Made by a program: the position numbers and the translations under genes. Shown here piece by piece: positions 3,393-42,509 of a DNA stretch of 64,000 nucleotides. This DNA is from an uncultured Pirellulales bacterium (GTDB taxonomy: Bacteria > Planctomycetota > Planctomycetia > Pirellulales > CAYNRE01), in assembly GCA_964399535.1 (NCBI GenBank), contig CAYNRE010000070.1:402252-466251 (forward strand), in the 5' to 3' direction. Under the pieces are notes generated by a model. It did no database searches and had not been told where the DNA came from. It saw nothing but the letters and a program-made list of their open reading frames with translations. Positions within the stretch are counted from its first letter, which is position 1; every line of letters begins with the position of its first letter.

Positions 3393-4073
3393 TGTTGACA
3401 CTCCTTCTTTTTTTAGTCGCCTCGCGCGGTGGGCAATCCGCCAACGCGGCCGCTCGATTCATGGACCGCCAGACCCGAGCGCCGAAGGGCCCAGGGGCGG
3501 CTGCCACAGAAAGCCCCCCGGCCCGAAGACGGCGAATGCCCTGATTTTCGTCCCGTCAACTCTGGCCGAAAGATACCCGAAAGGCCCGTGCCTCGCAATC
3601 GGCCCCGGCGAGTGGGTCCAGCTCGCTCAACGGTCATTAGCCGAGCCCGGCCAGTTGCTCAAACCAGGGCCACGATGCGGGCCCGCTGCTGCTGCAATTT
3701 GGCCAGGCCGGCCACGGTGTTGTCTGCCAGCGACTGATAGTGGGCAATCGTGCTCGCTTCTTCCGTGTCGTCGACTCCGTCCGCCGTGCGCAAGGCGTCG
3801 TCGAGATCGGCTCGCCAACCGTTTGGCAGATTAGTCGAGGCGTCGAGCGCGCTGGAGGCAGCGCCAACGACCAACCCATCGACCGCGGTCCACCTTCCCA
3901 AGGCCTCGTCGACGATTCGCACGGCCCGGGCCGTGTTCGGGCCGAGCCCGATGCCGCTTGCTCGGCGGGGTTGTGCGAAAAAACAATGGCGGGCCGACCT
4001 TTGGCCCGTTACTGCCCAGAGGTCGATTGGGCGCGGAGTAAACGACCGCCGAGATCCTCGCCGCGCCAAGCGG

Positions 4074-8216: not shown

Positions 8217-9716
8217 TCAGGCCACCACCTCGCCAATGACCCGGCCATGCACGTCGGTCAGCCGCCGATCGAGCCCGTTGTGGTACCAGGTGAGCCGGGT
8301 GTGATCGTAGCCCAACAGGTGCAGCACCGTGGCGTAAAAATCCCACACGGTCGAAATCCGTTCCACGGCCCGCCGCCCCAGTTCGTCGGTGGCGCCATAG
8401 CTGGTGCCCGGTCGCACTCCGGCTCCAAGCATCCAAGCGGTGAAGGCGTCGGGATTGTGGTCTCGGCCCGTGGTCCCCTGTTGATGCGTCGGCATCCGGC
8501 CAAACTCCGTGGTCCACAGCACCAGCGTGTCTGCCAGCAGCCCGCGCTGTTTCAAATCGGTAAGCAGCGCGGCGGTAGGCTGATCGAAGATCGGGCAGTG
8601 GCGCTCGTAATCGGCCTGGAGCGTTTTGTGGGCATCCCAATTCAAGAGCCCGTCGACCCCCGAGGCCCGCGACGCGCAGAACAGGTGCACATAGCGCACC
8701 CCGCGTTCCAGCAGCCGGCGGGCCAAGAGGCAGTTGCGAGCGTAGGCCGCCTTGAGCCGGTTCGAGTCGCCCGTGCCGTAGGCGGCGTGGGTCGTGGCCG
8801 ATTCCTGGTCGAGGGCCATTACCTCGGGGGCGGAAAGCTGCATCCGGCCGGCCAGTTCGTAGGCCGCCATCCGGGCCGCCAGCTCGCTATTGCCGGGCCG
8901 CGCGGCGGCGTGGGCCTGGTCGAGCCGGGCCGCCAGTTCGAGCGTGGCCTGTTCTTCCTCGCTTGTAATCTCGGTCGGGCGCGACAGATTGCGGATCGGC
9001 CGGCCCGCGCCGAGCACGATGCCCTGTTCGGCGGCCGGCAAGAACCCGCTCGACCAGTTGGCTTTGCCGTTGGGGGGCTCGCCCCGCACGTCGGGCAAGG
9101 CCACGTAAGTGGGCAGGTTCTCGTTGGCGCTCCCCAGGGCGTAGCTCACCCAGGCCCCCGCGCTGGGAAACCCCTCGGCCGCCTGGCCGGTGTTCATCAT
9201 CACGCAGCCCGGTCCATGGGTGTTGGTCTTCGAGGTGAGCGAGTGAATGAACGCCATGCCATCGACGTGGCGGGCCAGGTGCGGCAACATGCTGGTGATC
9301 GGTTTTCCCGACTGGCCAGCAGGCACGAACGGCCAGGGGCTCTTCATCAAGTTGCCGTTCGCCCCCTGGAACGAAAGGAAATTGGCCTCGCCCGGCGGCG
9401 GCTGTCCGTGGCGCCGCTCGAGCTCGGGCTTGTAGTCCCACAGGTCCAGGTGCGAGGCGGCCCCGGGGCAAAAAATCTGCAGCACCCGCTTTGCCCGCGC
9501 CGGAAAGTGGGTTTGCCCCCGCCCGGGGCTCCAGGGCGGCGGGGCAACCGGCGACTCGCCGGCGGCGGCTCGGGTGTCGGCAGCCAGCAGGTGGGCCAGG
9601 CCGATGGTGCCCAGCCCCGTGGCCACGTGCTCCAACAGCCGCCGCCGAGTGAGCAATTGTTCGGCCACCGATCGTGGGCCGGCTGCGCCGCCGACCGGGT
9701 CAGGCTTAATCGACAT
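8217..9716 (-). CDS. DUF1501 domain protein (sulfatase/phosphatase-like, Tat signal)
   Basis: RRRLLEHVATGLGTIGLAHLLA is a twin-arginine signal. The sequence shows the conserved DUF1501 core of Planctomycetes and overlaps the end of the upstream PSD1 gene by 11 bp. Confidence 0.85.
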   Translation of the reverse strand: MSIKPDPVGGAAGPRSVAEQLLTRRRLLEHVATGLGTIGLAHLLAADTRAAAGESPVAPPPWSPGRGQTHFPARAKRVLQIFCPGAASHLDLWDYKPELERRHGQPPPGEANFLSFQGANGNLMKSPWPFVPAGQSGKPITSMLPHLARHVDGMAFIHSLTSKTNTHGPGCVMMNTGQAAEGFPSAGAWVSYALGSANENLPTYVALPDVRGEPPNGKANWSSGFLPAAEQGIVLGAGRPIRNLSRPTEITSEEEQATLELAARLDQAHAAARPGNSELAARMAAYELAGRMQLSAPEVMALDQESATTHAAYGTGDSNRLKAAYARNCLLARRLLERGVRYVHLFCASRASGVDGLLNWDAHKTLQADYERHCPIFDQPTAALLTDLKQRGLLADTLVLWTTEFGRMPTHQQGTTGRDHNPDAFTAWMLGAGVRPGTSYGATDELGRRAVERISTVWDFYATVLHLLGYDHTRLTWYHNGLDRRLTDVHGRVIGEVVA

Positions 9717-12700
9717 AGATCAACTCGTTGGAATTGAGCAGGGCCCGGGCCACCGCCGTCATGCCAAAGCGGCTTGCCACGTTGGCGGCCCCCGCGGTTT
9801 CCTCGGCGGTGGGGGGCCGGCAGTAACACAGCCGAAACGCCAGGTCGACCTGGGCCGCCGAGTCGCCCGGATGGGCCGCTTCGAGCCGCGCCGCCAGGGC
9901 CCGGGCCATGTCCCAGGTAAATCGGTGGTTCAGCAGCGTCAGTGCCTGGAGCGGCGTGGTGGTCTGCGCGCGGCGCGGTGCGGAGAAAGCCGGGTCGGGG
10001 CAATCAAAATCGCTCAGCACGTCGACTTCGGCCGCTCGCGCATTCTGGTGATAGACCGCGCGGCGATACGTCTCCGGACCGTGCTCATCGAGCGGAACGT
10101 AGGTAGCCACGTTGTCTTCCAGGTACTGGTAAAGCCGATAGCCCGGGCCCCCCATCGTGGGATCGAGCTTGCCGGCCACCGAGAGCAGCGTGTCGCGCAC
10201 CTGTTCGGCCGTCAGGCGCCGCGGCGGGTAGCGCCACAACAAGCGGCTTTCGGCGTCGGCGGCGAGCGCCTCGCCACGCGCATTGCCGGCTTGGCGATAA
10301 GTCTGCGAGGTGACAATCAAGCGGTGCAGTGGCTTGAGCCGGGTGCCGTGGACCAGCACCTGCCGGGCCAGCCAATCCAAAAGGGCAGGGTGCGTCGGGC
10401 GCCCCCCCATATATCCCAGGTCGCTCGGCGTATCCACGATGCCGCGTCCGAAGTGGTAATGCCAGAGCCGGTTGGCCAGCACACGCGGCGGAAGCGGGTT
10501 GTCGGGCGACGTAATCCACTGGGCCAAGGCCAGCCGGCGCTGCGACTCGGGTGCCTCGGCCGGCTGCTCGTAGCCGCAGGCCAGGTCGCCCAGCACCTCG
10601 AGCCCGTGCGGCGAAACCGCGATTCCGGCGCGCTGGGGGTCGCCCCCCAGAAAAACGGTAAAGGGCCCCGGTGCATCGCGAAACTGCCCGACCCACCAGT
10701 GCGCCAGCGGAGGTACCGCGCGAATCTGGGCATCGAGCTCGGCGATTTGCGCGCCGAGCGCGTCGAGCCGCACTTGGTCGTCCGACGTGGTGGCCCGCTG
10801 GGTCAAACGCCACTGGCGCAGGGCTTCGGTCACGGGCTTGCGATCGTGGCTGTTGGCCACTTCGGTCCAAACCTGGCCGTCGCTGGAAACTTCGATCCGA
10901 TAATCGCCCACGAACAGCGTGTTGGGGTCCTGTGCCCCCAGTCCGCGCGGGCGATCGCTGGAAAACACGATTCGGTCGATCGTCGCCGGCTCGGCCAGCG
11001 TTACAGTCAGCGTTGGGCCCGCCGCCAACCAGCGAGCCCCGTAAACGCCGTCGATGGCCAGCTTCGGGTCGTAGGCCTCGGCGAAGTCGCCGGCCACCCG
11101 GCTGGCCCCCTCGGCCCGCGCCCCCCGCGAAGCCAGGGCCACGTTCTTGGGCTCGGGCCCAGCGGTCCAAATCTCGAATTCGTCGAGTCGAAAGTTGGCC
11201 GCCATGGTTGGCACCGTATCGGTCGACTCGACCACCAGCCGGACCTGTCGCACCAGGGTGGGTGAAAACGGCTCCTCGGTTCCATACCGATCGACTGGCG
11301 GGCGAACCCAGCCGGCCTGGGCCTCGGCGGCCAACCCGTCGGCGCGGTCTTGAATGGCCCGCCGCACCGCGTCGATTTCTCGCGCCAATGCGCCGCGCCG
11401 CGATTCCAGCGGGGCCAGCCGCTCCTGGCGCGCCGCACGCTCGGCCGGAGTTGCCACGTCGCGGGCCCCGTGATGCACTCCGGCCAAGGCGGCGTAGAGC
11501 CCGTAGTAATCGCGCTGGGTTATCGGGTCGAACTTGTGGTCGTGGCACCGGGCGCACCCCACGGTCAGCCCGAGAAAGGCTTCGCTGGTGGTGCGAATGA
11601 TCTCGTCGAGCGTGTTGGCCCGAATCAGCGCGGCTTGCACGGGGTCTTGATTGCCCACGTCGTCATAGGTTCCCGCGACCAAAAACGTGGTGCCCACTTC
11701 GATTGCCGGGTTGCCGGGACCCACCACGTCGCCCGCCAGGTGTTCGGTGATCAGGCGGCTGATGGGTCGGTCTTCGTTCAGGGCGCGAATCACGTAGTCG
11801 CGAAACGGCCAGGCGTTGTTCACCAGGGTATTTCGCTCGAAGCCGGTGCTTTCGCCGAAGCGGACCACGTCGAGCCAATGGCGGCCCCATTGCTCGCCGT
11901 AATGCGGCGAATCCAGGAGCCGGTCGACCAACCGCTCGTAGGCATCGGGGGCCGGGTCGTTCTCGAACTGCCGCACTTCTTCGGGGCTGGGGGGCAGGCC
12001 GGTCAGGTCGTAGCTCAACCGCCGAATCAATACCTGGCGCGGGGCAGGGGGGTTGGCCGCCAACCCGTGGGCCGCCAGCTCGGCCCCCACGAAGCGGTCG
12101 ATGGGGTGCTGGCCCCATTCGGCCGGCAGCAGCCCGCCCAGCCAGCTTTCGACCGAGGGAATCTGGACGTCAGCCAAAGGGGCCAGCGACCACCAATCGC
12201 GCCCGGCGCGCGACCGTTCGCGCAGTTCGACCCCCTCGGGCCAGGCCGCGCCGGCTTCGATCCAGCGGCGCACCAGCGCTATCTGTTGCGCGGAAAGCGG
12301 GGCCCCCTCCTTGGGCATCCGCGGCACACCCTCCTCGCCCGGGCCGACCACCTGGAGCAGGTGGCTCTCGTCCGGTTGCCCAGGCACCACGTAGCCCAGC
12401 TCCCTCAGGTCGTCGGGCGAGGCCAGCGAGAGCTCTCCCTCGCGGCGCGAGGCCTGGTGACACCGCAGGCAATGGGCCGTGAGCAGCGGGGCCACGTCGC
12501 GTTCAAAGTCGACCGGCGCCGGCGTCGGGCTGCCCGCCTCGCCGGCCCGCGACGACCGGTGGATGAGCCCGGGGGCTATCGAAGCGAGCACGGCGGCGAC
12601 CAGGACTGCGGCCCGCGCCAGGCCCAGGCCCGATCGCAGGCTGGCTCGCCCCGGCCGCGGCGCTCGACCGCCGCGCGCCGTCGGCACCCGGCCGCGAAGA

Positions 12701-12981: not shown

Positions 12982-14223
12982 ATGTGGTCCAACGGTCACC
13001 GCCGAACTTTGGCGGGCATGGCGGTCGGCGGAGCGCTGTCCGTGGCGGTGTTGGGCTGCCGACCTCAGGGCGCGCCGCCCGAGCCCCCCGTTCCCAAAGT
13101 AACCGTGGCGCACCCCGTTTCGCGCGAGCTAATCGACTACGACTATTACAACGGTTGGCTTCAGGCCAGCGAAAGCGTCGAGGTGCGAGCCCGGGTCAAC
13201 GGCTACTTGACTGAAATCTACTTTCGCGACGGCGAAGAAGTGGAACAAGGCGCCAAGCTGTTTGAAATCGACCCGCGCCCCTTTCAGGCCGAGGTCGACC
13301 GGGCCCAGGCCGAGCGGGCCAGGGCCGAAGCCGAACTGGCCCGCACAACCGCCAACCTGGCGCGGGCCGACAAGCTGCAACCCAGCCGGGCGATTTCGCA
13401 AGAAGAGTACGACCGCACCGTGGCCGAAAAGGCCGTGGCCGACGCCGAGGTGAAATCGGCCCAGGCGGCGCTCGAGCGTGCCGAGCTCGATCTGGAGTTT
13501 ACCCAAGTCACCGCACCGATCGCGGGACGCATTAGCCGCAACCTGATCACCGTGGGCAATCTGGTCCAGGCCGACACAACGCTGCTGACCAGCGTGGTAT
13601 CGATCTCGCCTTACTTTTGCTACTTCTATGTCGACGAACGTTCGCTACAGGGCTATCAACGCCGCAATCGCGAGCGCATTCCCGATGCACCCCGCCTGGC
13701 CCTTTCCGAGTTGAAGATTCCCTTCGAGTTCGGCCTGGAAACCGAAGAGGGCTACCCGCACCAGGGGATGCTCGATTTTTCCGATAACCGGGTCGACCCC
13801 GCCACGGGGACGATCCAAATCCGCGGCGTGATCGACAACCAGAAGCGGCTTTTCGTCTCGGGCGAGCGCGTGCGGATGCGGTGCGGCAACCGAGACCCTT
13901 ACCAGGCGCTGCTGGTTCCGGAAACGGCCATTTTGGCCGACCAAGACAAGCGCTATGTCTTGGCCCTGACCAGCGACCACGTCGTCCGCCGCCAAGATGT
14001 TCGGCTCGGCCGGCTGCAAGACGATGGAATGCGGGCGGTAGTTCCGCTCGGCCAGGAGGCCGAATCGCTTGGCGACCAGGCCTGGATCGTGGTGCAGGGG
14101 CTGCAAGCTGCCCGAATCAACTACCCTGTCGAAGCGCTCGACGCCGCCGGCAAACCGATTGCACCGCCGGGAAAACCGAAAGCCAGCGCCACCGCCTCGA
14201 CCCCGTTGCCGGTCCGCTCGTAG
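12982..14223 (+). CDS. RND efflux membrane fusion (periplasmic adaptor) protein
   Basis: Signal/lipobox MAVGGALSVAVLGC. Coiled-coil and beta-barrel adaptor regions (QAEVDRAQAERARAEAELARTTANLARADKL). It sits immediately upstream of an AcrB-type pump. Confidence 0.8.
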   Translation: MWSNGHRRTLAGMAVGGALSVAVLGCRPQGAPPEPPVPKVTVAHPVSRELIDYDYYNGWLQASESVEVRARVNGYLTEIYFRDGEEVEQGAKLFEIDPRPFQAEVDRAQAERARAEAELARTTANLARADKLQPSRAISQEEYDRTVAEKAVADAEVKSAQAALERAELDLEFTQVTAPIAGRISRNLITVGNLVQADTTLLTSVVSISPYFCYFYVDERSLQGYQRRNRERIPDAPRLALSELKIPFEFGLETEEGYPHQGMLDFSDNRVDPATGTIQIRGVIDNQKRLFVSGERVRMRCGNRDPYQALLVPETAILADQDKRYVLALTSDHVVRRQDVRLGRLQDDGMRAVVPLGQEAESLGDQAWIVVQGLQAARINYPVEALDAAGKPIAPPGKPKASATASTPLPVRS

Positions 14224-33836: not shown

Positions 33837-34117
33837 AGTGCCAGACTCCAGAGGTTCGCAGAGGCTGCTTTATTGTGTCCGTCGAGGGCGCCTCGCCAAG
33901 CGATCGGCCGATTCGCCCGACCGGCGGCCAGCGGCTGGTAGTTTATCATCCGCGAGCTGCCCCATGGGCCCGAAAATGAGGGAAAGCGGTGCCTGGTTGA
34001 CAGCTATAGGAAGTCCCTTGTCAAGGCAGACCTCGAGCGGTGGCCCGATTCTTCTTCTTGCAAGGGGGGGTGACCTGTTTCACCCGCTCTGAGACATTTT
34101 CGGCTTGCCGCTAGCAA

Positions 34118-34219
34118 CGACGTCAACAACGCCGAAGGGGAGGATGATCGGCACGCCGGCAAGCTGACTCACTCCCTCTTCGACCGCCGTATCGGCCAAT
34201 TCGGTGAGCACAACCGGGG
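34118..34219. repeat. ~102-bp direct repeat, copy 2 (near-identical to 35043-35144)
   Basis: acgacgtcaacaacgccgaagggga[g/c]gatgatcggcacgccggcaagctgactcactccctcttcgaccgccgtatcggccaattcggtgagcacaaccgggg is present twice with 1 mismatch. On the minus strand it encodes PVVLTELADTAVEEGVSQLAGVPI(M/I)LPFGVVDVV. Confidence 0.85.
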
Positions 34220-34320
34220 TTGCCGCCGCGGCCGCTACCGGGGGGGCGCTTCGACCTGTGTCGGTGATCCGAACAGAGCACTGCTGGACAAGCCAGCAGT
34301 GGCAGCCGACGAGACTTCGC

Positions 34321-34680
34321 TTATTCACGAATGGGAAACTTGTCGCAGCCTTCTGTATTCCACCAATTCTGTACTGCATGTCGTCCACTTGGTTCGAGGT
34401 GAAACCACAGCGCGTCAAACGAGAATCGTGGAACCTGTTCCGCGGCTATTGGGCTAACATCACCAGAAGGCGGTTGCTCCGCGCATGGTGTTACCAGTCC
34501 AAGAGCCATTAACTGTTCAAGCGCGTTGATAATTTCTGACGACGTGAACGCACTTCCACGGGCCGCTCGCCAACTGGAATCGTGCTCGTTATTAAGCATC
34601 CGAATAATTGAGTCGACGTTTTCAATTTCGTCATCCTGCATGACGTCGGCCACACACATCCGCACTTCTTCTGGTGTCAT
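34321..34680 (-). CDS. small acidic protein, candidate immunity protein
   Basis: 119 aa, acidic, no signal peptide. It sits 2 bp downstream of the toxin-like gene inside the low-GC cassette. Confidence 0.4.
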   Translation of the reverse strand: MTPEEVRMCVADVMQDDEIENVDSIIRMLNNEHDSSWRAARGSAFTSSEIINALEQLMALGLVTPCAEQPPSGDVSPIAAEQVPRFSFDALWFHLEPSGRHAVQNWWNTEGCDKFPIRE

Positions 34681-34682
34681 TG

Positions 34683-35651
34683 TCAGTCCACCTCGCCAAT
34701 TCGTGGCTTATACGTTGGTCGAAAATGATCGTCCAGGATTCTGCCAGCAGCGTCAGTAACGCGGTGTCGGACGATTGATTCGCCCGTCTGCGGATTGCGG
34801 TAGATGATTTGTTCGCTTACGCCGCCTCGCGCCCTCATTGACGTTGCCGGTTCAGCATGAATCGATTGCGGCACCCAGTCGCTCGGCTTCTTAGTGATGT
34901 CAGCGAGCTTGTCGGTGAACGTGCGACCAGCATTCCTACTTGCCGCTCCCGCCGCGTCGCCCGATCGCCCCCCCTTCGAGGCGACCGATTCGGCGACTTC
35001 CTCCAGACCCTCCTGGGCGAGCTTCTTGACGCCTAGTTTGGCAGCGTCCTGGACGACGTCAACAACGCCGAAGGGGAGCATGATCGGCACGCCGGCAAGC
35101 TGACTCACTCCCTCTTCGACCGCCGTATCGGCCAATTCGGTGAGCACAACCGGGGCGGCTGCCGCGCCGGCAGCGCCGGCGGTCACGGCTCCCAGGCCGG
35201 CGGCAGTCAGCGCGGCCGCGCCGCCGAGCGCCGCCGCCGAAGTGCCCAGCGCCAGCTTCTGCGCCGTTTGCAGATCGGCGTCCATCTCTGAGGGATGGAT
35301 CAGAAAGTGCCAATAGTCGCCCAGGCTCGGCCAATCCCACGAGGCGTCGCTCGCCGTGCCCGGCCTCTCGGCCATCCGCTCGCGCAGCGCCAATTCGTGC
35401 AGCGCTTCCAGGCTGCGCGGGTCAGGCCGAGTGCTGAGCGGGTCGAAGCTACGTATGCGCTCTTCGGCTTCGGCCAAGAACGCTGCGTGTGCGGCGCGGC
35501 GAGCGGCCGCGGCGCGCTCGGCCTGCTGGACGCGGGCAGCGGAAAGCGCCGCAAGCTCGTCGAGCCGCCGAGCGATTTCGAGCAGCTTTTCGCGGCGTTC
35601 CCAGTTGTAAATCGGCTCGGCCAAGCGCACTGCCCCCGTGTGCGCGGCCAA
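34683..35651 (-). CDS. membrane-associated protein with Gly/Ala-zipper helix and variable C-terminal domain (candidate polymorphic toxin)
   Basis: Coiled-coil N-region, then LALGTSAAALGGAAALTAAGLGAVTAGAAGAAAA (glycine-zipper TM-like), then the repeat-encoded PVVLTELADTAVEEGVSQLAGVPIMLPFGVVDVV, then a low-GC C-terminal ~120 aa (...EQIIYRNPQTGESIVRHRVTDAAGRILDDHFRPTYKPRIGEVD). No family recognised. Confidence 0.45.
   Translation of the reverse strand: MAAHTGAVRLAEPIYNWERREKLLEIARRLDELAALSAARVQQAERAAAARRAAHAAFLAEAEERIRSFDPLSTRPDPRSLEALHELALRERMAERPGTASDASWDWPSLGDYWHFLIHPSEMDADLQTAQKLALGTSAAALGGAAALTAAGLGAVTAGAAGAAAAPVVLTELADTAVEEGVSQLAGVPIMLPFGVVDVVQDAAKLGVKKLAQEGLEEVAESVASKGGRSGDAAGAASRNAGRTFTDKLADITKKPSDWVPQSIHAEPATSMRARGGVSEQIIYRNPQTGESIVRHRVTDAAGRILDDHFRPTYKPRIGEVD
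35043..35144. repeat. ~102-bp direct repeat, copy 1 (within toxin-like CDS)
   Basis: Same sequence as 34118-34219. Sequence between the copies (about 34220-35042) is ~50% GC versus ~67% flanking. Confidence 0.85.
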
Positions 35652-38890: not shown

Positions 38891-39602
38891 CTGCCCCGCC
38901 CCCAGCGCCAGCCCCACCCGCCCCGCCGAACCCGTGGTTTCGGCCGAAGGAGTGAATTTCAGCTTCGGCACGGGCGAACTAGCCAAACAGATTCTCTTCG
39001 ATGTCTCGCTGGAGATCGCCCCGGGCGAAATCGTGCTGCTCACCGGGCCCAGCGGCAGCGGCAAGACCACGCTGCTCACCTTGATCGGCGCCCTGCGCCA
39101 TGTGCGCCAGGGGCGGTTGCGGGTGCTTTCACACCAGCTCGATCAGGCCGGCGCCGACGAACTGGTGGTGGTCCGCCGGCAGATTGGTTTTATCTTTCAG
39201 CAGCACAACCTGCTGCCGTTCCTCACGGCCCGGCAAAACGTGGAACTGATGTTCCAACTTCGCCCCGAGGCCCACGGCCAGGCCCGCGCCCGCACCGAGC
39301 AGCTACTGGCCAGCGTGGGGCTGGCGGACCGGCTCGATTACTACCCCGACAAGCTCTCGGGCGGGCAGCGTCAGCGGGTGGCCATTGCCCGAGCGCTGGC
39401 CCTTACGCCCGATTTGATTCTGGCCGATGAGCCCACGGCGGCGCTCGACAGCCAGTCGGGCCGCGACGTGGTGAACCTGCTGCAAGACCTGGCCCGGCGA
39501 CAGGGTAGCCCGATCTTGTTGGTCACCCACGACAGCCGGATTCTGGACATCGCCGACCGCATCATCCACATGGAAGACGGCCGCGTCTCTCAGGAGCGGT
39601 AG
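38880..39602 (+). CDS. ABC transporter ATP-binding protein (DevA/MacB-ATPase-like)
   Basis: Walker A GPSGSGKTT, signature LSGGQRQRVAIARAL, Walker B ILADEPTAALD. Overlaps the permease by 11 bp. Confidence 0.85.
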   Translation: MSSNCPAPSASPTRPAEPVVSAEGVNFSFGTGELAKQILFDVSLEIAPGEIVLLTGPSGSGKTTLLTLIGALRHVRQGRLRVLSHQLDQAGADELVVVRRQIGFIFQQHNLLPFLTARQNVELMFQLRPEAHGQARARTEQLLASVGLADRLDYYPDKLSGGQRQRVAIARALALTPDLILADEPTAALDSQSGRDVVNLLQDLARRQGSPILLVTHDSRILDIADRIIHMEDGRVSQER

Positions 39603-39786
39603 CGAGGGCGGCTCAAGATAGCAGAGACCAACGTCCACTGCCGGCTTGCCGCGCCTCTCTTCGCCCGCGGAAACCCATACTCCCCCACAAAAACGGGCGA
39701 GGAACCGGAATTCTCTTGCGTTTCACGATCACTTGCTATAAAGACCATCTTAGTCCGCACCACATCTTGCAGCAAAGGGGGCTCGA

Positions 39787-40131
39787 ATGCAGACGTCTAC
39801 TAAAACCGCCATGTTCATCGTCGCCATGCTTATGGTCGTCTCATCGCGCGCAGCGCACGCTGTTTGGACTGACGCACAAGGAATGCAGGTCGTCCCGATG
39901 GCAACTTCGGCTGGTTTAATTGGTGGAAAACCAAACTGTCCGAAGTTTACGCCAACCGACACTGCTGAGGTCTATTGTTGTTATGAAGGCCCCGAGAGCC
40001 AATGTGACGGGAGTTATAATTTCGAGTTTTACGATCACACCGACCCTGTAGGTGCCGCAAAAAAGGTAGTGCCATGTACCACGCTGACCACCTGTGGAAA
40101 ACCGAGTGCGACAGGTTGCAGCGGAAGTTAG
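39787..40131 (+). CDS. small secreted Cys-rich protein (7 Cys in ~90-aa mature part)
   Basis: Signal peptide MQTSTKTAMFIVAMLMVVSSRAAHA. Mature region contains NCP, YCCYEG, QCDG, PCTT, TCGK and GCSGS. Local GC is ~50%. Confidence 0.45.
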   Translation: MQTSTKTAMFIVAMLMVVSSRAAHAVWTDAQGMQVVPMATSAGLIGGKPNCPKFTPTDTAEVYCCYEGPESQCDGSYNFEFYDHTDPVGAAKKVVPCTTLTTCGKPSATGCSGS

Positions 40132-40218
40132 TTTAGGACTCGATCCATGGTGGTCGCCAAAAGCGCTCGTGGGATCGTGCGATGGTGCCTCCGGCCAAGC
40201 GCGACTTTACGCTTGGCC

Positions 40219-40953
40219 ATGGGCGAGAAGGTGAGCGCCACGAACGGGGTGTCTCTAAAGCGAGCAAGGTGCATTGCATTAAGTCTATGCGCAATCCTTG
40301 TGTTGAGCTGCCTTCGAGCCCATGCAAGCGATCAGACGGCGAACCTATCTGAAGTCGACCTTGAATCGCTTCGATCGGCCCAAGCAATTGATTCTTCCGA
40401 ATCATTGCCGCTTGCCGACGAACATGCGGCACGGAGGTTTCTCGCGAACCACCCGCTGCCGACTCGCGCGGTCCTGCCGGAATGTGGGCCGAATGCGCTA
40501 TTTTTTTTGCTGAATCTCTGTCAAGCGCCGGCAACTCTCGACCAAGTTCGATCCCTGGTCGAGCTCGGCCAGCACGGCGCAAGCCTGGAGGAACTCAGAC
40601 GAGTCGCGGTCCAGCTGGGGCTTGCGGTACGGGTCATGAAGTGCAGTCCCGTGGCACTTAGCGGGCGCGAACCGCTCATTGCCCTGCAGGGTGACCCATC
40701 ACCCGGTGGTGGTGGACATTACGTAGTCGTGCTCCGACGGGGTGATCAGGGGCGTGCAACCACCATCGATGGCACCACGGGAGAGCTCCGCCGACTACCG
40801 CCCGGGTCGTTCGACCGCGATTTCTCCGGTTTTGCACTAATCCCTGCCGATCATGGGCCGACGGCGCTTGAGTCTGGCTGGGTAACGATCGCCCTGATGG
40901 GCGTGGTCGTTGGGGAGTGTGCTCTGCTCATCCGATTTTGGCGGCGAGCATGA
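40219..40953 (+). CDS. secreted/membrane-anchored peptidase C39-like (papain-fold Cys protease) domain protein
   Basis: Signal peptide, then LPECGPNALFFLLNLCQ (catalytic Cys in a CGxxA context) and GGGHYVVVLRRGD (catalytic His of the C39/'HYVV' type), then a C-terminal TM WVTIALMGVVVGECALLI. Confidence 0.55.
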   Translation: MGEKVSATNGVSLKRARCIALSLCAILVLSCLRAHASDQTANLSEVDLESLRSAQAIDSSESLPLADEHAARRFLANHPLPTRAVLPECGPNALFFLLNLCQAPATLDQVRSLVELGQHGASLEELRRVAVQLGLAVRVMKCSPVALSGREPLIALQGDPSPGGGGHYVVVLRRGDQGRATTIDGTTGELRRLPPGSFDRDFSGFALIPADHGPTALESGWVTIALMGVVVGECALLIRFWRRA

Positions 40954-41041
40954 GCTCACACTTAAGCCCGCTATATCCGCTGCGAGTAGGTTCTGTCGCA
41001 CGGGGTTGCTGCCTGGAGCTGTTGTCGCATGAACTCCCGCT

Positions 41042-42394
41042 GTGATTTGCCCATCCCAAGCTACTGAGTTGCATCCCCGCTTTGACAAGTCTTCGCTCGC
41101 CGCATCATCAAAGCTGAAAGCCGTCCCTGTGCAACTTCATTCGTCGCGACTCTACTGGATCGTGCTGTTGGCACTTACCGGAGTTGCCGCAACCCCCTGG
41201 CTGCGCAGTACCGCCAATGCGCGACGTGATTCACTGAAGTCCTTCGATCCACGAGCCAACACAAGGCAAGCGGACTCGCGCTTAGACGAGGGCAATCGGC
41301 GCTCTCGATCGTACCGAAATGCCCCCTTGTCAATCGCGCCAAGGCCTGGTTTCGAGCGCTGCGTTGGTTCGGCGCAACTCGCTACCGTAGCCGGACGCGT
41401 TGTCCCGACCTGGGATACGTTGAAGATCGGCAGCCTGGTGCACGCCCTTCGAGTTTGGGGCGCCGACCCCGGTGTGCCTTGCCACGAAGGACTCGCCCCG
41501 TATCCCTCGGCGCTCCGCTTTTCGCCGATTGAATTATACGAAGTGCTGTTAGACCATCGCCAGTTCCGTGCTGTGTTTCCCGGGGAAGCTCCACTGCTCT
41601 GGAAGACCCCTTATGGCATCCGAGTTCGTGTATGGCCATCGTGGTCGGGAGATTTCGCAGGGCAATCTGGGCATATCGACGATCTACTGTCGGCGTGCGC
41701 AGAAATCGGACTTCCACTTTCTTCGCCCGTGAAGGCAGCCGATTGTGACGGCACGATTCTCGACCTGCTGCATGATTCGGTGCTGCGATTTCAATGGGAC
41801 CAAGAGTTGGAATGGACGCTCGATGCTTTCGCCCGATACCTACCACCGAACCGAACTTGGGTGAATCGGTTCGGCGAACGGTTTTCTTTTGACAAGTGTT
41901 GCCGCCGCTTACTGGAACAGCCGATTGGCCGTGGGGCATGTTACGGCACTCACACGCCTTACACCTTGGCGGTGGTGCTTGCCTGCGACGAACAAATTCG
42001 GATTCTTTCCGAAGAATGCCGAATGGCTGTGCAGCAGCGACTCGAACAGGTCGCAACGATGCTGCATAACTCCCAGCGACCAAACGGCGCTTGGGATTCC
42101 AGTTGGGCATCGGGGATGCGAGCGCAAAACTCGCACGAGGATTCTCAGTGGGTAGAATTGACGGTCACTGGACACATGCTCGAGTGGCTGGCCTACGCAC
42201 CAGCTTCTTGCTGTTTTACCCCTGATGACGTACGTCGCGCGGTGGAATACTTGCATCACCACATTCAATCATGTTCTGACCACGCGCAGTCGCTTTACTA
42301 TCTACCCCATTCCCACGCCGTTCGCGGCATGCTGCTCTTGTCTGGAAACTGCATGTCGCGCGTCGTGCCGCCTCCGCGTCAGGGAGAGAACTGA
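41042..42394 (+). CDS. N-terminally anchored hypothetical protein, possibly alpha/alpha-toroid (prenyltransferase/terpene-cyclase-like repeat)
   Basis: TM LYWIVLLALTGVAA. SQRPNGAWDSSW resembles a QxxDGxW toroid repeat. Several Cys/His clusters are present. The LanC motif order is not satisfied. Start is uncertain. Confidence 0.3.
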   Translation: MICPSQATELHPRFDKSSLAASSKLKAVPVQLHSSRLYWIVLLALTGVAATPWLRSTANARRDSLKSFDPRANTRQADSRLDEGNRRSRSYRNAPLSIAPRPGFERCVGSAQLATVAGRVVPTWDTLKIGSLVHALRVWGADPGVPCHEGLAPYPSALRFSPIELYEVLLDHRQFRAVFPGEAPLLWKTPYGIRVRVWPSWSGDFAGQSGHIDDLLSACAEIGLPLSSPVKAADCDGTILDLLHDSVLRFQWDQELEWTLDAFARYLPPNRTWVNRFGERFSFDKCCRRLLEQPIGRGACYGTHTPYTLAVVLACDEQIRILSEECRMAVQQRLEQVATMLHNSQRPNGAWDSSWASGMRAQNSHEDSQWVELTVTGHMLEWLAYAPASCCFTPDDVRRAVEYLHHHIQSCSDHAQSLYYLPHSHAVRGMLLLSGNCMSRVVPPPRQGEN

Positions 42395-42509
42395 TTGACT
42401 GCACCTGGCAAACTGTCTCAAGGGGGTGCCACAGGCGCACTCGTTGCGGAAACCGCCTTCCCCGCTCCATCGGGTAGGTTCGCCGATGACCCTTAGGCCG
42501 GAGCGATCC

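Follow-up and report, generated by a model that had tools for sequence, protein, structure and literature searches.

A putative polymorphic-toxin tip and immunity module flanked by short coding repeats in a Pirellulales bacterium

Introduction

How did two nearly identical copies of a short coding segment come to bracket the 3′ end of one gene and the small gene behind it, and what do these genes encode? The question is raised by a locus within a 64,000-nucleotide stretch of DNA from an uncultured Pirellulales bacterium (hereafter the window), for which a preliminary description had proposed the Campbell-type acquisition of a polymorphic-toxin/immunity-like module. The locus raises the further question of how a toxin bearing the pre-toxin module described below, without Rhs or any known export domain, would be delivered. 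Our analysis indicates, with a probability of roughly 0.8, that the cassette encodes a toxin tip with its immunity protein and that the repeat is both a scar of recombination and a substrate for it.

Results

Organization of the locus

The features of the locus are listed in Table 1. The direct repeat had been described as 102 bp in length with a single mismatch; the mismatch was recovered (34143 G vs 35079 C), and the length was found to be 103 bp, with a spacing of 936 bp between the copies. The position given for copy 2 was about right, whereas copy 1 had been placed at 35043-35144, about 10 bp off; its in-frame location within the 322-aa ORF was confirmed. The flanks beyond the 103 bp had no significant similarity, and the homology borders of copy 2 were sharp on both sides. 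A 59-nt core probe matched exactly two sites in the 64 kb, where shuffles gave an expectation of zero. The repeated segment is the best-conserved stretch of the pre-toxin module, and copy 1 carries a derived ATG codon (Met191). No further copies of the module, of Rhs sequences, or of the tip were detected in the window.

For the toxin gene, a GTG at 35630, which coincides with the start of the homologue P0051, is as likely a start as the TTG, which has an in-frame stop two codons 5′ of it. GC contents at the three codon positions of the N-terminal part were 0.77, 0.58, and 0.81, consistent with a genuine coding frame. The immunity gene begins 2 nt past the toxin stop codon, and a Shine-Dalgarno-like motif, GAGGTGG, precedes it within the last toxin codons, in line with the acidic ORF 2 bp downstream of the toxin noted earlier. 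The spacer between the immunity gene and copy 2 contains a hairpin with a perfect 9-bp stem and a 5-nt loop (34279-34301) and is conserved in the sister strain L010. A search of the minus strand gave no convincing candidate for a promoter or an intrinsic terminator. Copy 2 is followed, as previously described, by 11 codons and a stop; beyond the stop, an intergenic stretch of 240 bp leads to an unrelated gene, with no remnant of a tip or immunity gene.

Table 1. Features of the putative toxin/immunity locus, in window coordinates
Feature	Coordinates	Strand	Remarks
Putative toxin gene	34683..35651	-	322 aa from TTG at 35651
N-terminal region (U)	35340..35651	-	~104 aa, helical, Ala/Arg/Glu-rich; shared with P0001 and P0051 only
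Pre-toxin module	34941..35339	-	Residues 105-237; no Pfam/NCBIfam model matches
Direct repeat copy 1 (H)	35053..35155	-	In frame, toxin residues 167-200, PVVLTELADTAVEEGVSQLAGVPIMLPFGVVDVV
Native linker	34941..35052	-	QDAAKLGVKKLAQEGLEEVAESVASKGGRSGDAAGAAS, 38 aa; ~89% identical to P0001 and P0052; GC 69%, GC3 0.76
Putative toxin tip	34686..34940	-	~85 aa, basic (pI 9.7); GC 56%, GC3 0.59
Putative immunity gene	34321..34680	-	119 aa, pI 4.4; GC 51%, GC3 0.48; predicted PadR-like winged helix
Spacer (S)	34220..34320	-	68% GC; between immunity gene and copy 2
Direct repeat copy 2 (H)	34117..34219	-	Ancestral ATC (Ile), as in P0001, P0052, and L010
Tail (T)	34080..34116	-	After copy 2; 11 codons (ASGKPKMSQSG) and stop at 34080-34082

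Base composition and extent of the foreign DNA

The preliminary description had assigned about 50% GC to some 820 bp of DNA in a genome of about 67% GC. The anomaly itself was significant, and the figures were overstated: the 833 bp between the repeats have a GC content of 56.9%, compared to 65.0% for the window, and the low-GC part extends over about 620 bp. This part, the tip together with the immunity gene (34321-34940, 620 bp), has a GC content of 52.7% and is the lowest 620-bp stretch in the window (z = -3.6). GC3 was 0.81 in the N-terminal region, 0.74 in the repeat, 0.76 in the linker, 0.59 in the tip, and 0.48 in the immunity gene, which places the compositional break at about 34940 (residue ~238) and not at the end of the repeat. 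The homology to the relative P0001 stops at the same point, about 34940, coinciding with the step in GC3 and lying 112 bp past the repeat. Accordingly, of the last ~120 aa that had been ascribed to low-GC DNA, about 85 are foreign, and the 38-aa linker is native. Because the foreign unit and the divergence from P0001 both begin about 38 codons past the repeat, the repeat is not the junction at which tips were exchanged between lineages, as had been supposed.

Relatives with exchanged tips and a travelling tip/immunity pair

P0001 is 83% identical to the window protein over residues 1-237 and then continues into a GH-E nuclease tip (PF14410, E 4e-19). P0052, a 164-aa ORF in an 829-kb NCBI contig, begins at VTELADTAVEE, within about 3 codons of the position corresponding to the 5′ border of copy 2, and shares the repeat and linker before a DUF4951-like tip. 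Thus, alternative tips follow the conserved segment elsewhere, as the preliminary description had anticipated. The window tip in turn was found in other settings. In L001, the end of an Rhs core is followed by the tip and a 123-aa ORF that is 59% identical to the window immunity ORF, and in L007 the tip/immunity pair lies within an Isosphaeraceae Rhs orphan array; in both, the tip is fused in frame behind an Rhs core after DPxGL, in classical orphan arrays. In L002/L003 the tip stands behind a non-Rhs protein of 484 aa, and L004, L011, and L012 are stand-alone or orphan tip/immunity pairs. A homologue of the 119-aa ORF directly follows the tip in eight loci (L001, L002, L003, L004, L007, L010, L011, and L012). 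In L008, the immunity homologue follows just a 22-aa C-terminal fragment of the tip, whereas L009 has a short immunity fragment behind the tip and the main immunity match about 1.6 kb downstream. With varied tips on one body and one pair recurring behind Rhs cores and other N-termini, these sequence comparisons strongly support the reading of the locus as a polymorphic toxin tip with its immunity module.

Properties of the putative toxin tip

Homologues of the tip form a family restricted to Planctomycetota and absent from Pfam. The tip was confidently modelled as one helix and a four-stranded antiparallel sheet (α+β4), and no significant fold or sequence relative was found beyond this family. 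Neither the tip and immunity protein nor the module matched anything in Pfam, NCBIfam, PADLOC, and PHROGs, and the 258-aa protein encoded next to the locus likewise had no match; the earlier statement that no known toxin or immunity family was recognised for either product stands. Conserved His, Glu, Arg, and Lys residues lie on one face of the sheet of the tip. From these residues and the pairing of a basic tip with an acidic immunity protein, our best guess is that the tip is a putative nucleic-acid-targeting enzyme; its toxicity and activity are presumed from context. Compared to L010, the tip and immunity genes have 7 synonymous and 2 non-synonymous differences, a ratio that suggests purifying selection on the two taken together.

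N-terminal region and pre-toxin module

Neither Pfam nor NCBIfam contains a domain matching toxin residues 1-237. For the N-terminal region, only P0051 matches profile positions 22-127, with P0001 being 83% identical, and no relatives of the N-terminal body were found in genome contigs (185k species) or JGI metagenome contigs; querying the metagenomes again, this time with the repeat region, likewise yielded none. The region has no signal peptide, no recognised trafficking domain, and no N-terminal hydrophobic signal. The window toxin also lacks an RHS_repeat match and DPxGL, the sequence before the module being ...GTASDASWDWPSLGDYW; tblastn with Rhs relatives gave a match restricted to the module. 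The sole possible trace of Rhs is IYNWERREKLLEI, which weakly resembles YxWDxRNRL. We considered whether the N-terminal region is a frameshifted Rhs core and rejected this, since the other frames contain nothing Rhs-like and there is just this short motif. No secretion-system genes were found within the 64-kb window. The lack of an export or trafficking domain, a signal peptide, an Rhs core, or DPxGL that would explain delivery speaks against a toxin reading.

The pre-toxin module consists, in order, of WxDYWHxLxHPxxMDxDL, an Ala/Gly-rich hydrophobic segment, an acidic TELADTAVEE helix, VPI(M/I)LP...D..QD, and the KLGVKK linker. The toxin had been called membrane-associated; the only basis for this is the Ala/Gly-rich segment, which is moderately hydrophobic (mean Kyte-Doolittle 1.28), and we do not retain the term. 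The module family comprises 63 representatives at E<=1e-3, at least 30 of which have DPxGL within 40 aa upstream of the module, and the tips that it carries include Tox-REase-7, Ntox24, Tox-URI2, GH-E, and PT-HINT. The module usually follows the Rhs DPxGL site. Since the relatives have it directly after this self-cleavage site, the module would be the leading part of the released cargo.

Alternative explanations and origin of the duplication

An assembly artefact, in which the second copy or the integrated arrangement stems from a mis-resolved short repeat common to strains or paralogues, is extremely improbable. Short-read graphs with k < 103 cannot separate an integrated unit from a chromosome plus a circle, and Logan contigs of the source samples break at 34145 and 35611, which shows that these samples contain the ATC variant of the repeat, and likewise the 5′ end of the gene, in further copies. 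However, the junction of the ATC repeat with the tail was 100% identical in three separate Logan sample assemblies (L013-L015), and the spacer-repeat and repeat-linker junctions were present in L010, a different strain from a different project. Moreover, the mismatch ties the ATG variant (copy 1) to the linker and the ATC variant (copy 2) to the tail, and ordinary 150-nt reads span the 103-bp repeat. We also consider it very unlikely that the pair is a non-secreted toxin-antitoxin or addiction module fused by chance to an unrelated protein and taking no part in interbacterial antagonism. Many homologues are indeed stand-alone ORFs of about 75-105 aa followed by a 120-aa gene, the partner has a winged-helix fold like many antitoxin DNA-binding domains, and the window protein carries no export signal. 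On the other hand, the toxin gene comes first and its partner follows after 2 nt, the strongly acidic character of the partner (pI 4.4) is unlike that of a DNA-binding antitoxin, and no PADLOC or NCBIfam toxin-antitoxin or defence model matched. The tip also occurs in frame behind Rhs cores after DPxGL within orphan arrays (L001 and L007), and the other tips of the pre-toxin module are catalogued polymorphic-toxin domains. What was found thus departs from a type II toxin-antitoxin pair in the position and charge of the partner, in the model searches, and in the existence of Rhs fusions.

Regarding the duplicated segment, the origin proposed in the preliminary description is that a circle of about 0.94 kb (repeat-linker-tip-immunity-spacer) entered a pre-existing truncated gene, N-terminus-repeat-ASGKPKMSQSG-stop, through a single reciprocal crossover within the 103-bp segment, which was thereby duplicated; we regard this as possible and rather doubtful. 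The map is the exact formal product of such an event, with repeats differing at 1 of 103 positions, sharp homology borders on both sides, and nothing tip-like 3′ of copy 2. In addition, the contig from the sister strain L010 forms an isolated cycle in the de Bruijn graph (k=31, 30-nt terminal overlap). Its length of 935 bp corresponds to one repeat period, it runs spacer-repeat-linker-tip-immunity-spacer, and it has 12 true differences from the window; none of the 11 other loci was cyclic in the terminal overlap test. The integrated arrangement itself, or a tandem amplification, would yield an identical cycle, however, and a 0.9-kb circle that does not replicate would not be expected to exceed the chromosome in copy number. 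The foreign composition and the end of the P0001 homology lie 112 bp past the repeat, so that the foreign DNA does not start at the repeat as a circle integrated there would imply; the spacer-repeat junction of the circle would require an earlier repeat-X-repeat arrangement or illegitimate circularisation; and an empty-site allele (N-terminus-repeat-tail) was not found in any collection searched. A truncated orphan remnant fits the data at least as well. On this reading, which we favour at slightly less than even odds, copy 2 would be what is left of the 5′ end of a repeat-led orphan resembling P0052, after a deletion had removed its linker, tip, and immunity gene. P0052 demonstrates that intact repeat-led orphans occur in the lineage. 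The orphan-stump reading requires one further deletion, because no remnant lies 3′ of copy 2 and the 3′ border is as sharp as the 5′ border.

Two other candidates were rejected. Derivation of the tail from a decayed linker (GVKKLAQEG) was marginal at the protein level (shuffle p = 0.05) and absent at the DNA level (p = 0.4). An integron, insertion sequence, or phage origin was dismissed, as no integrase, transposase, or phage protein lies nearby. The spacer and the region upstream of copy 1 had no significant similarity (p = 0.36).

Discussion

We propose that the toxin consists of a lineage-specific helical N-terminus of about 104 aa, the conserved pre-toxin module, and an exchangeable basic tip of about 85 aa. 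The Ala/Gly-rich segment and acidic helix of the module might aid the passage of the cargo across the target membrane. The tip would have been acquired horizontally together with the adjoining downstream immunity gene, whose translationally coupled, acidic winged-helix product may neutralise the tip by direct binding. Copy 2 would then be a second, truncated pre-toxin segment that a recombination event inside the segment left 3′ of the immunity gene. Irrespective of how copy 2 arose, the two copies are substrates of RecA-type recombination, which can loop out or tandemly amplify the 936-bp linker-tip-immunity unit. That the full period (repeat-linker-tip-immunity-spacer) exists in natural populations as a free minicircle or a high-copy tandem amplification, and is passed from one pre-toxin gene to another by Campbell insertion at the 103-bp segment with the help of RecA, appears improbable. 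Were this so, it would represent the first physical intermediate of polymorphic-toxin tip exchange, and a body without a known secretion domain would point to an undescribed planctomycete delivery route.

With this locus, the known polymorphic toxins of Planctomycetota gain three uncatalogued families: a candidate toxin fold of about 80 aa without structural relatives, an acidic immunity protein with a predicted PadR-like winged helix, and a post-Rhs module with an Ala/Gly-rich segment. It is also a compact locus, defined at the sequence level, where a repeat of just 103 bp would be the substrate on which recombination acts in cassette turnover. If the 935-bp cyclic contig reflects real circles or amplification, the mechanism by which tip and immunity genes are acquired would be directly testable here.

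Comparison with known systems

In CdiA-CT and MafB-CT modules and other pre-toxin domains (VENN, PT-TG, PT-HINT), a short conserved pre-toxin segment is the exchange point, and the C-terminal fragment that is released has an N-terminal sub-domain with a putative role in target-cell entry. The window locus resembles these systems in having a short conserved pre-toxin segment that marks an exchange point, whereas its motif is different (DYWHYL...MDxDL, the Ala/Gly-rich segment, TELADTAVEE, and VPVILP..QD) and it lies in Planctomycetota, without type V secretion or Maf context. Integron cassettes and IS26 translocatable units are known examples of small circles that integrate in the Campbell manner; a unit of about 0.9 kb between direct repeats and a cyclic assembly path of one unit recall these elements. 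In contrast to them, the window has no integrase, attC/attI site, or insertion sequence, and its circle is an assembly path only. Since the homology offered by the repeat is that of a coding sequence, integration, if any, would depend on RecA.

The polymorphic toxin systems described by Zhang, de Souza, Anantharaman, Iyer & Aravind (2012, PMC3482391) share with the window locus a constant 5′ body with a variable C-terminal toxin, an adjoining downstream immunity gene that travels with the tip, the occurrence of one tip on different trafficking bodies and in stand-alone cassettes, and the low GC content of the foreign tip and immunity genes. In those systems, tip and immunity cassettes are replaced through one recombination at the 3′ tip (PMC3482391). 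The window tip, immunity protein, and module differ in matching no Pfam/NCBIfam family of that catalogue, and the window protein has no Rhs, PAAR, LXG/WXG, or filamentous haemagglutinin repeats and no signal peptide.

The Rhs main and orphan loci of Salmonella Typhimurium (STM0291/STM0292; Koskiniemi et al. 2014, PMC3967940) also carry pre-tip coding repeats 3′ of the main immunity gene, and these repeats recombine, deleting or amplifying the intervening unit, as we propose here. There, main and orphan rhs recombine via a 522-bp region of 95% identity (PMC3967940), compared to a repeat of 103 bp in the window, which lies in the post-Rhs pre-toxin module and not in an Rhs core. The main gene of the window has no Rhs core, and its "orphan" has just 11 codons and a stop in place of a tip and immunity gene. 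The Isosphaeraceae locus L007 has a tip/immunity pair of the window type within a main/orphan array with 300-bp repeats. Taken together, the window locus is of interest, yet in essence it is an ordinary representative of an established type of system.

Organization of the repeat-bracketed locus

All genes of the feature lie on the minus strand. The preliminary description had reported two near-identical repeats and this gene layout, both of which were accurate, although its coordinates for copy 1 were about 10 bp too low. The direct repeat is 103 bp long, with a spacing of 936 bp and a single mismatch, 34143 G versus 35079 C on the plus strand, corresponding to ATC (Ile) in copy 2 and ATG (Met) in copy 1 on the coding strand. 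A 59-nt core probe matched only these two sites in the window, where none was expected by chance.

Features of the toxin/immunity locus (window positions)
Feature	Position	Strand	Remarks
Toxin ORF, 322 aa	34683-35651	-	TTG start; alternative GTG at 35630 agrees with the start of homologue P0051
Repeat copy 1	35053-35155	-	inside the toxin ORF
Small ORF (putative immunity), 119 aa	34321-34680	-	begins 2 nt past the toxin stop
Spacer, 101 bp	between the 119-aa ORF and repeat copy 2	-	
Repeat copy 2	34117-34219	-	followed by 11 codons (ASGKPKMSQSG) and a stop at 34080

A Shine-Dalgarno-like motif, GAGGTGG, is located 7–8 nt ahead of the immunity ATG, within the codons for the conserved C-terminal ...GEVD of the toxin tip (GGCGAGGTGGAC; window 34683-34700 / 34680). 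Its position suggests translational coupling of the two genes, and this role may account for the conservation of GEVD across the tip family. Just 3′ of the immunity gene, a hairpin with a perfect 9-bp stem and a 5-nt loop (CACTGCTGG-CTTGT-CCAGCAGTG; 34279-34301), followed by no T-run, is kept in the sister-strain contig L010; it may be a terminator, an mRNA stabiliser, or a recombination feature.

Relatives of the tip/immunity pair

Searches with Pfam, NCBIfam, PADLOC, and PHROG yielded no family for the 322-aa or the 119-aa protein, and scanning their homologues likewise yielded none. The decisive evidence came from the homologues themselves. P0001 (359 aa; 428-kb NCBI contig) is 83% identical to the toxin up to residue 237, a stretch that takes in the repeat segment and the linker QDAAKLGVKKLAQEGLEEVAESVASK..GAAS; beyond it, P0001 carries a GH-E HNH nuclease domain (PF14410, E 4e-19). 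Conversely, P0002, the C terminus of an Rhs protein (…PTILVDPSGL…), has 64% identity over its last ~85 residues to the final 85 of the window protein, and the gene that follows on its contig encodes a product with 59% identity to the 119-aa ORF.

Several contexts, each within Planctomycetota, contain the pair: it follows an Rhs fragment in a classical orphan array whose cassettes are bracketed by direct repeats, 300 bp long, of the Rhs core end (L007, an Isosphaeraceae MAG), it follows a helical/Gly-rich protein of 484 aa that is unrelated (L002/L003), and it is stand-alone or orphan (L004, adjoining IS66 genes, L011, and L012); L005/L006 carry the immunity gene without the tip. Polymorphic toxin systems are defined by variable tips, a tip shared by different bodies, and a travelling downstream gene (PMC3482391). 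The recurrence of the pair on different bodies and the tip switch in P0001 therefore strongly support a polymorphic toxin system, so that the preliminary description was right in this reading and in recognising no known toxin or immunity family.

In the L007 array (KatS3mg108), the repeats lie at 8863-9162, 11100-11399, and 12988-13287 (75–97% identity); a different tip follows each, the first belonging to the family of the window toxin. In L002, a 17-bp unit (GGTSGACASGGCCTCTT) is present in at least seven tandem copies (3437-3601) inside a minus-strand gene converging on the immunity gene.

In the tip model, which is confident (pLDDT 90.3), a single helix packs against a four-stranded antiparallel sheet. 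Invariant residues (positions are tip numbering + 237) were Ser263, His265, Glu267, Ser279-Glu-Gln281, Arg295-His-Arg297, His309, and Lys315-Pro-Arg317. The tip is basic (pI 9.7) and its partner acidic (pI 4.4); together with the conserved His, Glu, and Arg residues, this makes a putative nucleic-acid-targeting enzyme our best guess. The tip and immunity genes differ from those of L010 by 7 synonymous and 2 non-synonymous changes, consistent with purifying selection on both.

Pre-toxin module

A profile of residues 1–238 run against 1.84 billion representatives gave 63 matches, among which only P0051 (106-aa ORF; 279-kb NCBI contig) matched the first ~105 residues; all others cover residues ~105–240. 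The module comprises, in order, W.DYWHYL.HP..MD.DL, an Ala/Gly-rich hydrophobic stretch, TE(L)(A)DTA(V)EE, G.PVI.P.SP.D..QD, and K(L)..KK. Neither Pfam nor NCBIfam has a model for it. The 103-bp repeat encodes its most conserved part and ends just short of the nearly invariant QD. DPxGL, the Rhs self-cleavage site, occurs within 40 residues upstream in at least 30 of the 63 matches and as near variants in about eight more; in nine, the module is the protein start. The tips downstream include Tox-REase-7 (2), Ntox24, Tox-URI2, GH-E, DUF4951, and PT-HINT (3), the majority being unclassified. Given DPxGL just upstream and catalogued toxin tips downstream, we regard it as a conserved pre-toxin module heading Rhs-released cargo. 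The module may help the tip to pass a membrane; the mean Kyte-Doolittle value of the Ala/Gly segment is only 1.28.

Residues 14–26 (IYNWERREKLLEI; window 35574-35612) resemble the Rhs-core motif YxWDxRNRLxxI, found upstream of the module in the Rhs relatives P0061, P0064, and P0098. This statistically weak N-terminal resemblance hints that the toxin gene descended from an Rhs orphan fragment.

Composition and assembly support

The GC content of the window is 65.0%, and that of 34321-34940 (620 bp) is 52.7% (z = -3.6), the lowest among all 620-bp windows (fraction 0.0002). GC3 drops stepwise from 0.81 (residues 1–166) through 0.74 (repeat) and 0.76 (37 residues past the repeat) to 0.59 (last 85 residues) and 0.48 (119-aa ORF), against 0.78–0.82 in adjoining genes. 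Thus, the foreign DNA starts at about residue 238 (~34940) and not at the repeat end (35052). A second low-GC stretch (39471-42400; 620-bp windows below 56% GC) immediately follows the TetR-HlyD-MacB-ABC operon. It encodes a stand-alone Peptidase_C39-domain protein (40147-40953) and a 450-aa ORF that could not be annotated (41042-42394), and may represent a further acquired island or an accessory for bacteriocin-type export.

An NCBI contig of 663 kb and the Logan assemblies of four runs also contain the neighbouring genes. At the level of assembled contigs, an assembly artefact is very improbable, as the repeat(ATC)-tail junction recurs at 100% identity in three of these Logan assemblies (L013-L015). 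The contigs concerned, from three runs of the source project, all end at 34145, just inside copy 2, where the ATC variant should be unique, and those of the opposite side from the three runs (L017-L019) all stop at 35611, which is 40 nt inside the toxin gene. The shared break points indicate extra copies of the Ile-type repeat, with another continuation, and of the 5′ end of the gene in those samples. Either paralogues, for example P0001, P0051, and P0052, or strains living side by side could account for them. The exact 322-aa and 119-aa products were absent from a collection of 15 billion proteins, in which six of the eight neighbouring products looked up were present, both from the 663-kb NCBI contig and from Logan; possible causes are differences in gene calling, pseudogene flags, or variation of the locus between assemblies.

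Origin and possible mobility of the repeat

No significant similarity extended beyond the 103 bp, either between the tail after copy 2 and the linker (p = 0.4 for DNA, p = 0.05 for protein) or between the spacer and the region upstream of copy 1 (p = 0.36). Copy 2, P0001, P0052, and L010 share the Ile state; on sequence grounds, Ile in copy 2 is ancestral and Met in copy 1 derived. P0052, an ORF of 164 aa in the interior of an 829-kb NCBI contig, starts (VTELADTAVEE) about three codons or fewer from the 5′ border of copy 2; it shares the linker, but its tip is a different one. Its start position indicates that this lineage has repeat-led orphan cassettes, and copy 2 has the appearance of a 5′ stump left by such a cassette. 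We assign this truncated-orphan origin a probability of about 0.4.

The preliminary description had proposed acquisition of low-GC DNA as a circular cassette by a single crossover at the repeat. The compositional anomaly is significant and the map is as this mechanism predicts; however, the mechanism is unproven and would require a truncated ancestral gene, the spacer-repeat junction of its circle presupposes an earlier duplication, and the crossover would fall 112 bp upstream of the start of the foreign DNA, so that both the boundary and the role given to the repeat need correction. We consider it possible, though somewhat less likely than the truncated orphan, and leave the remaining weight to other unequal or illegitimate events.

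With either origin, copies 1 and 2 could recombine, by which the 936-bp unit would be excised or amplified, as experiments on the main/orphan repeats of Salmonella rhs have demonstrated (PMC3967940). Excision would leave the cell without tip and without immunity. L010, a 965-bp Logan contig (DRR438495_841098) from the unrelated run DRR438495, matches 34117-35155 plus the spacer at 98.3% identity. The 30 nt at its two ends are identical, giving an isolated cyclic path of 935 bp in the order spacer-repeat-linker-tip-immunity-spacer, exactly one repeat period; none of 11 other loci tested had a cyclic terminal overlap. The cycle would fit a free minicircle or tandem amplification, but it may equally be a graph effect, as the integrated arrangement gives the same cycle at k=31 with flanks possibly pruned. 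We treat the cyclic unit as one suggestive lead.

Genomic setting and comparison with known systems

The window is chromosomal Planctomycetota DNA, encoding two DUF1559/N-methyl proteins, SelA, histidine kinases, a ClC channel, and similar genes, and the toxin gene is divergent from the TetR-HlyD-MacB-ABC operon. The 322-aa protein has no signal peptide, and no secretion genes (Rhs, T6SS, T7SS-like, or other) were found in the window; this lack of a recognisable delivery route is the main gap relative to a complete polymorphic toxin. The gene could be cassette-derived, relying on another route or partner. Judged by homology, the locus belongs to the well-known polymorphic toxin systems, to which it adds three uncatalogued families: the tip, the immunity protein, and the pre-toxin module.
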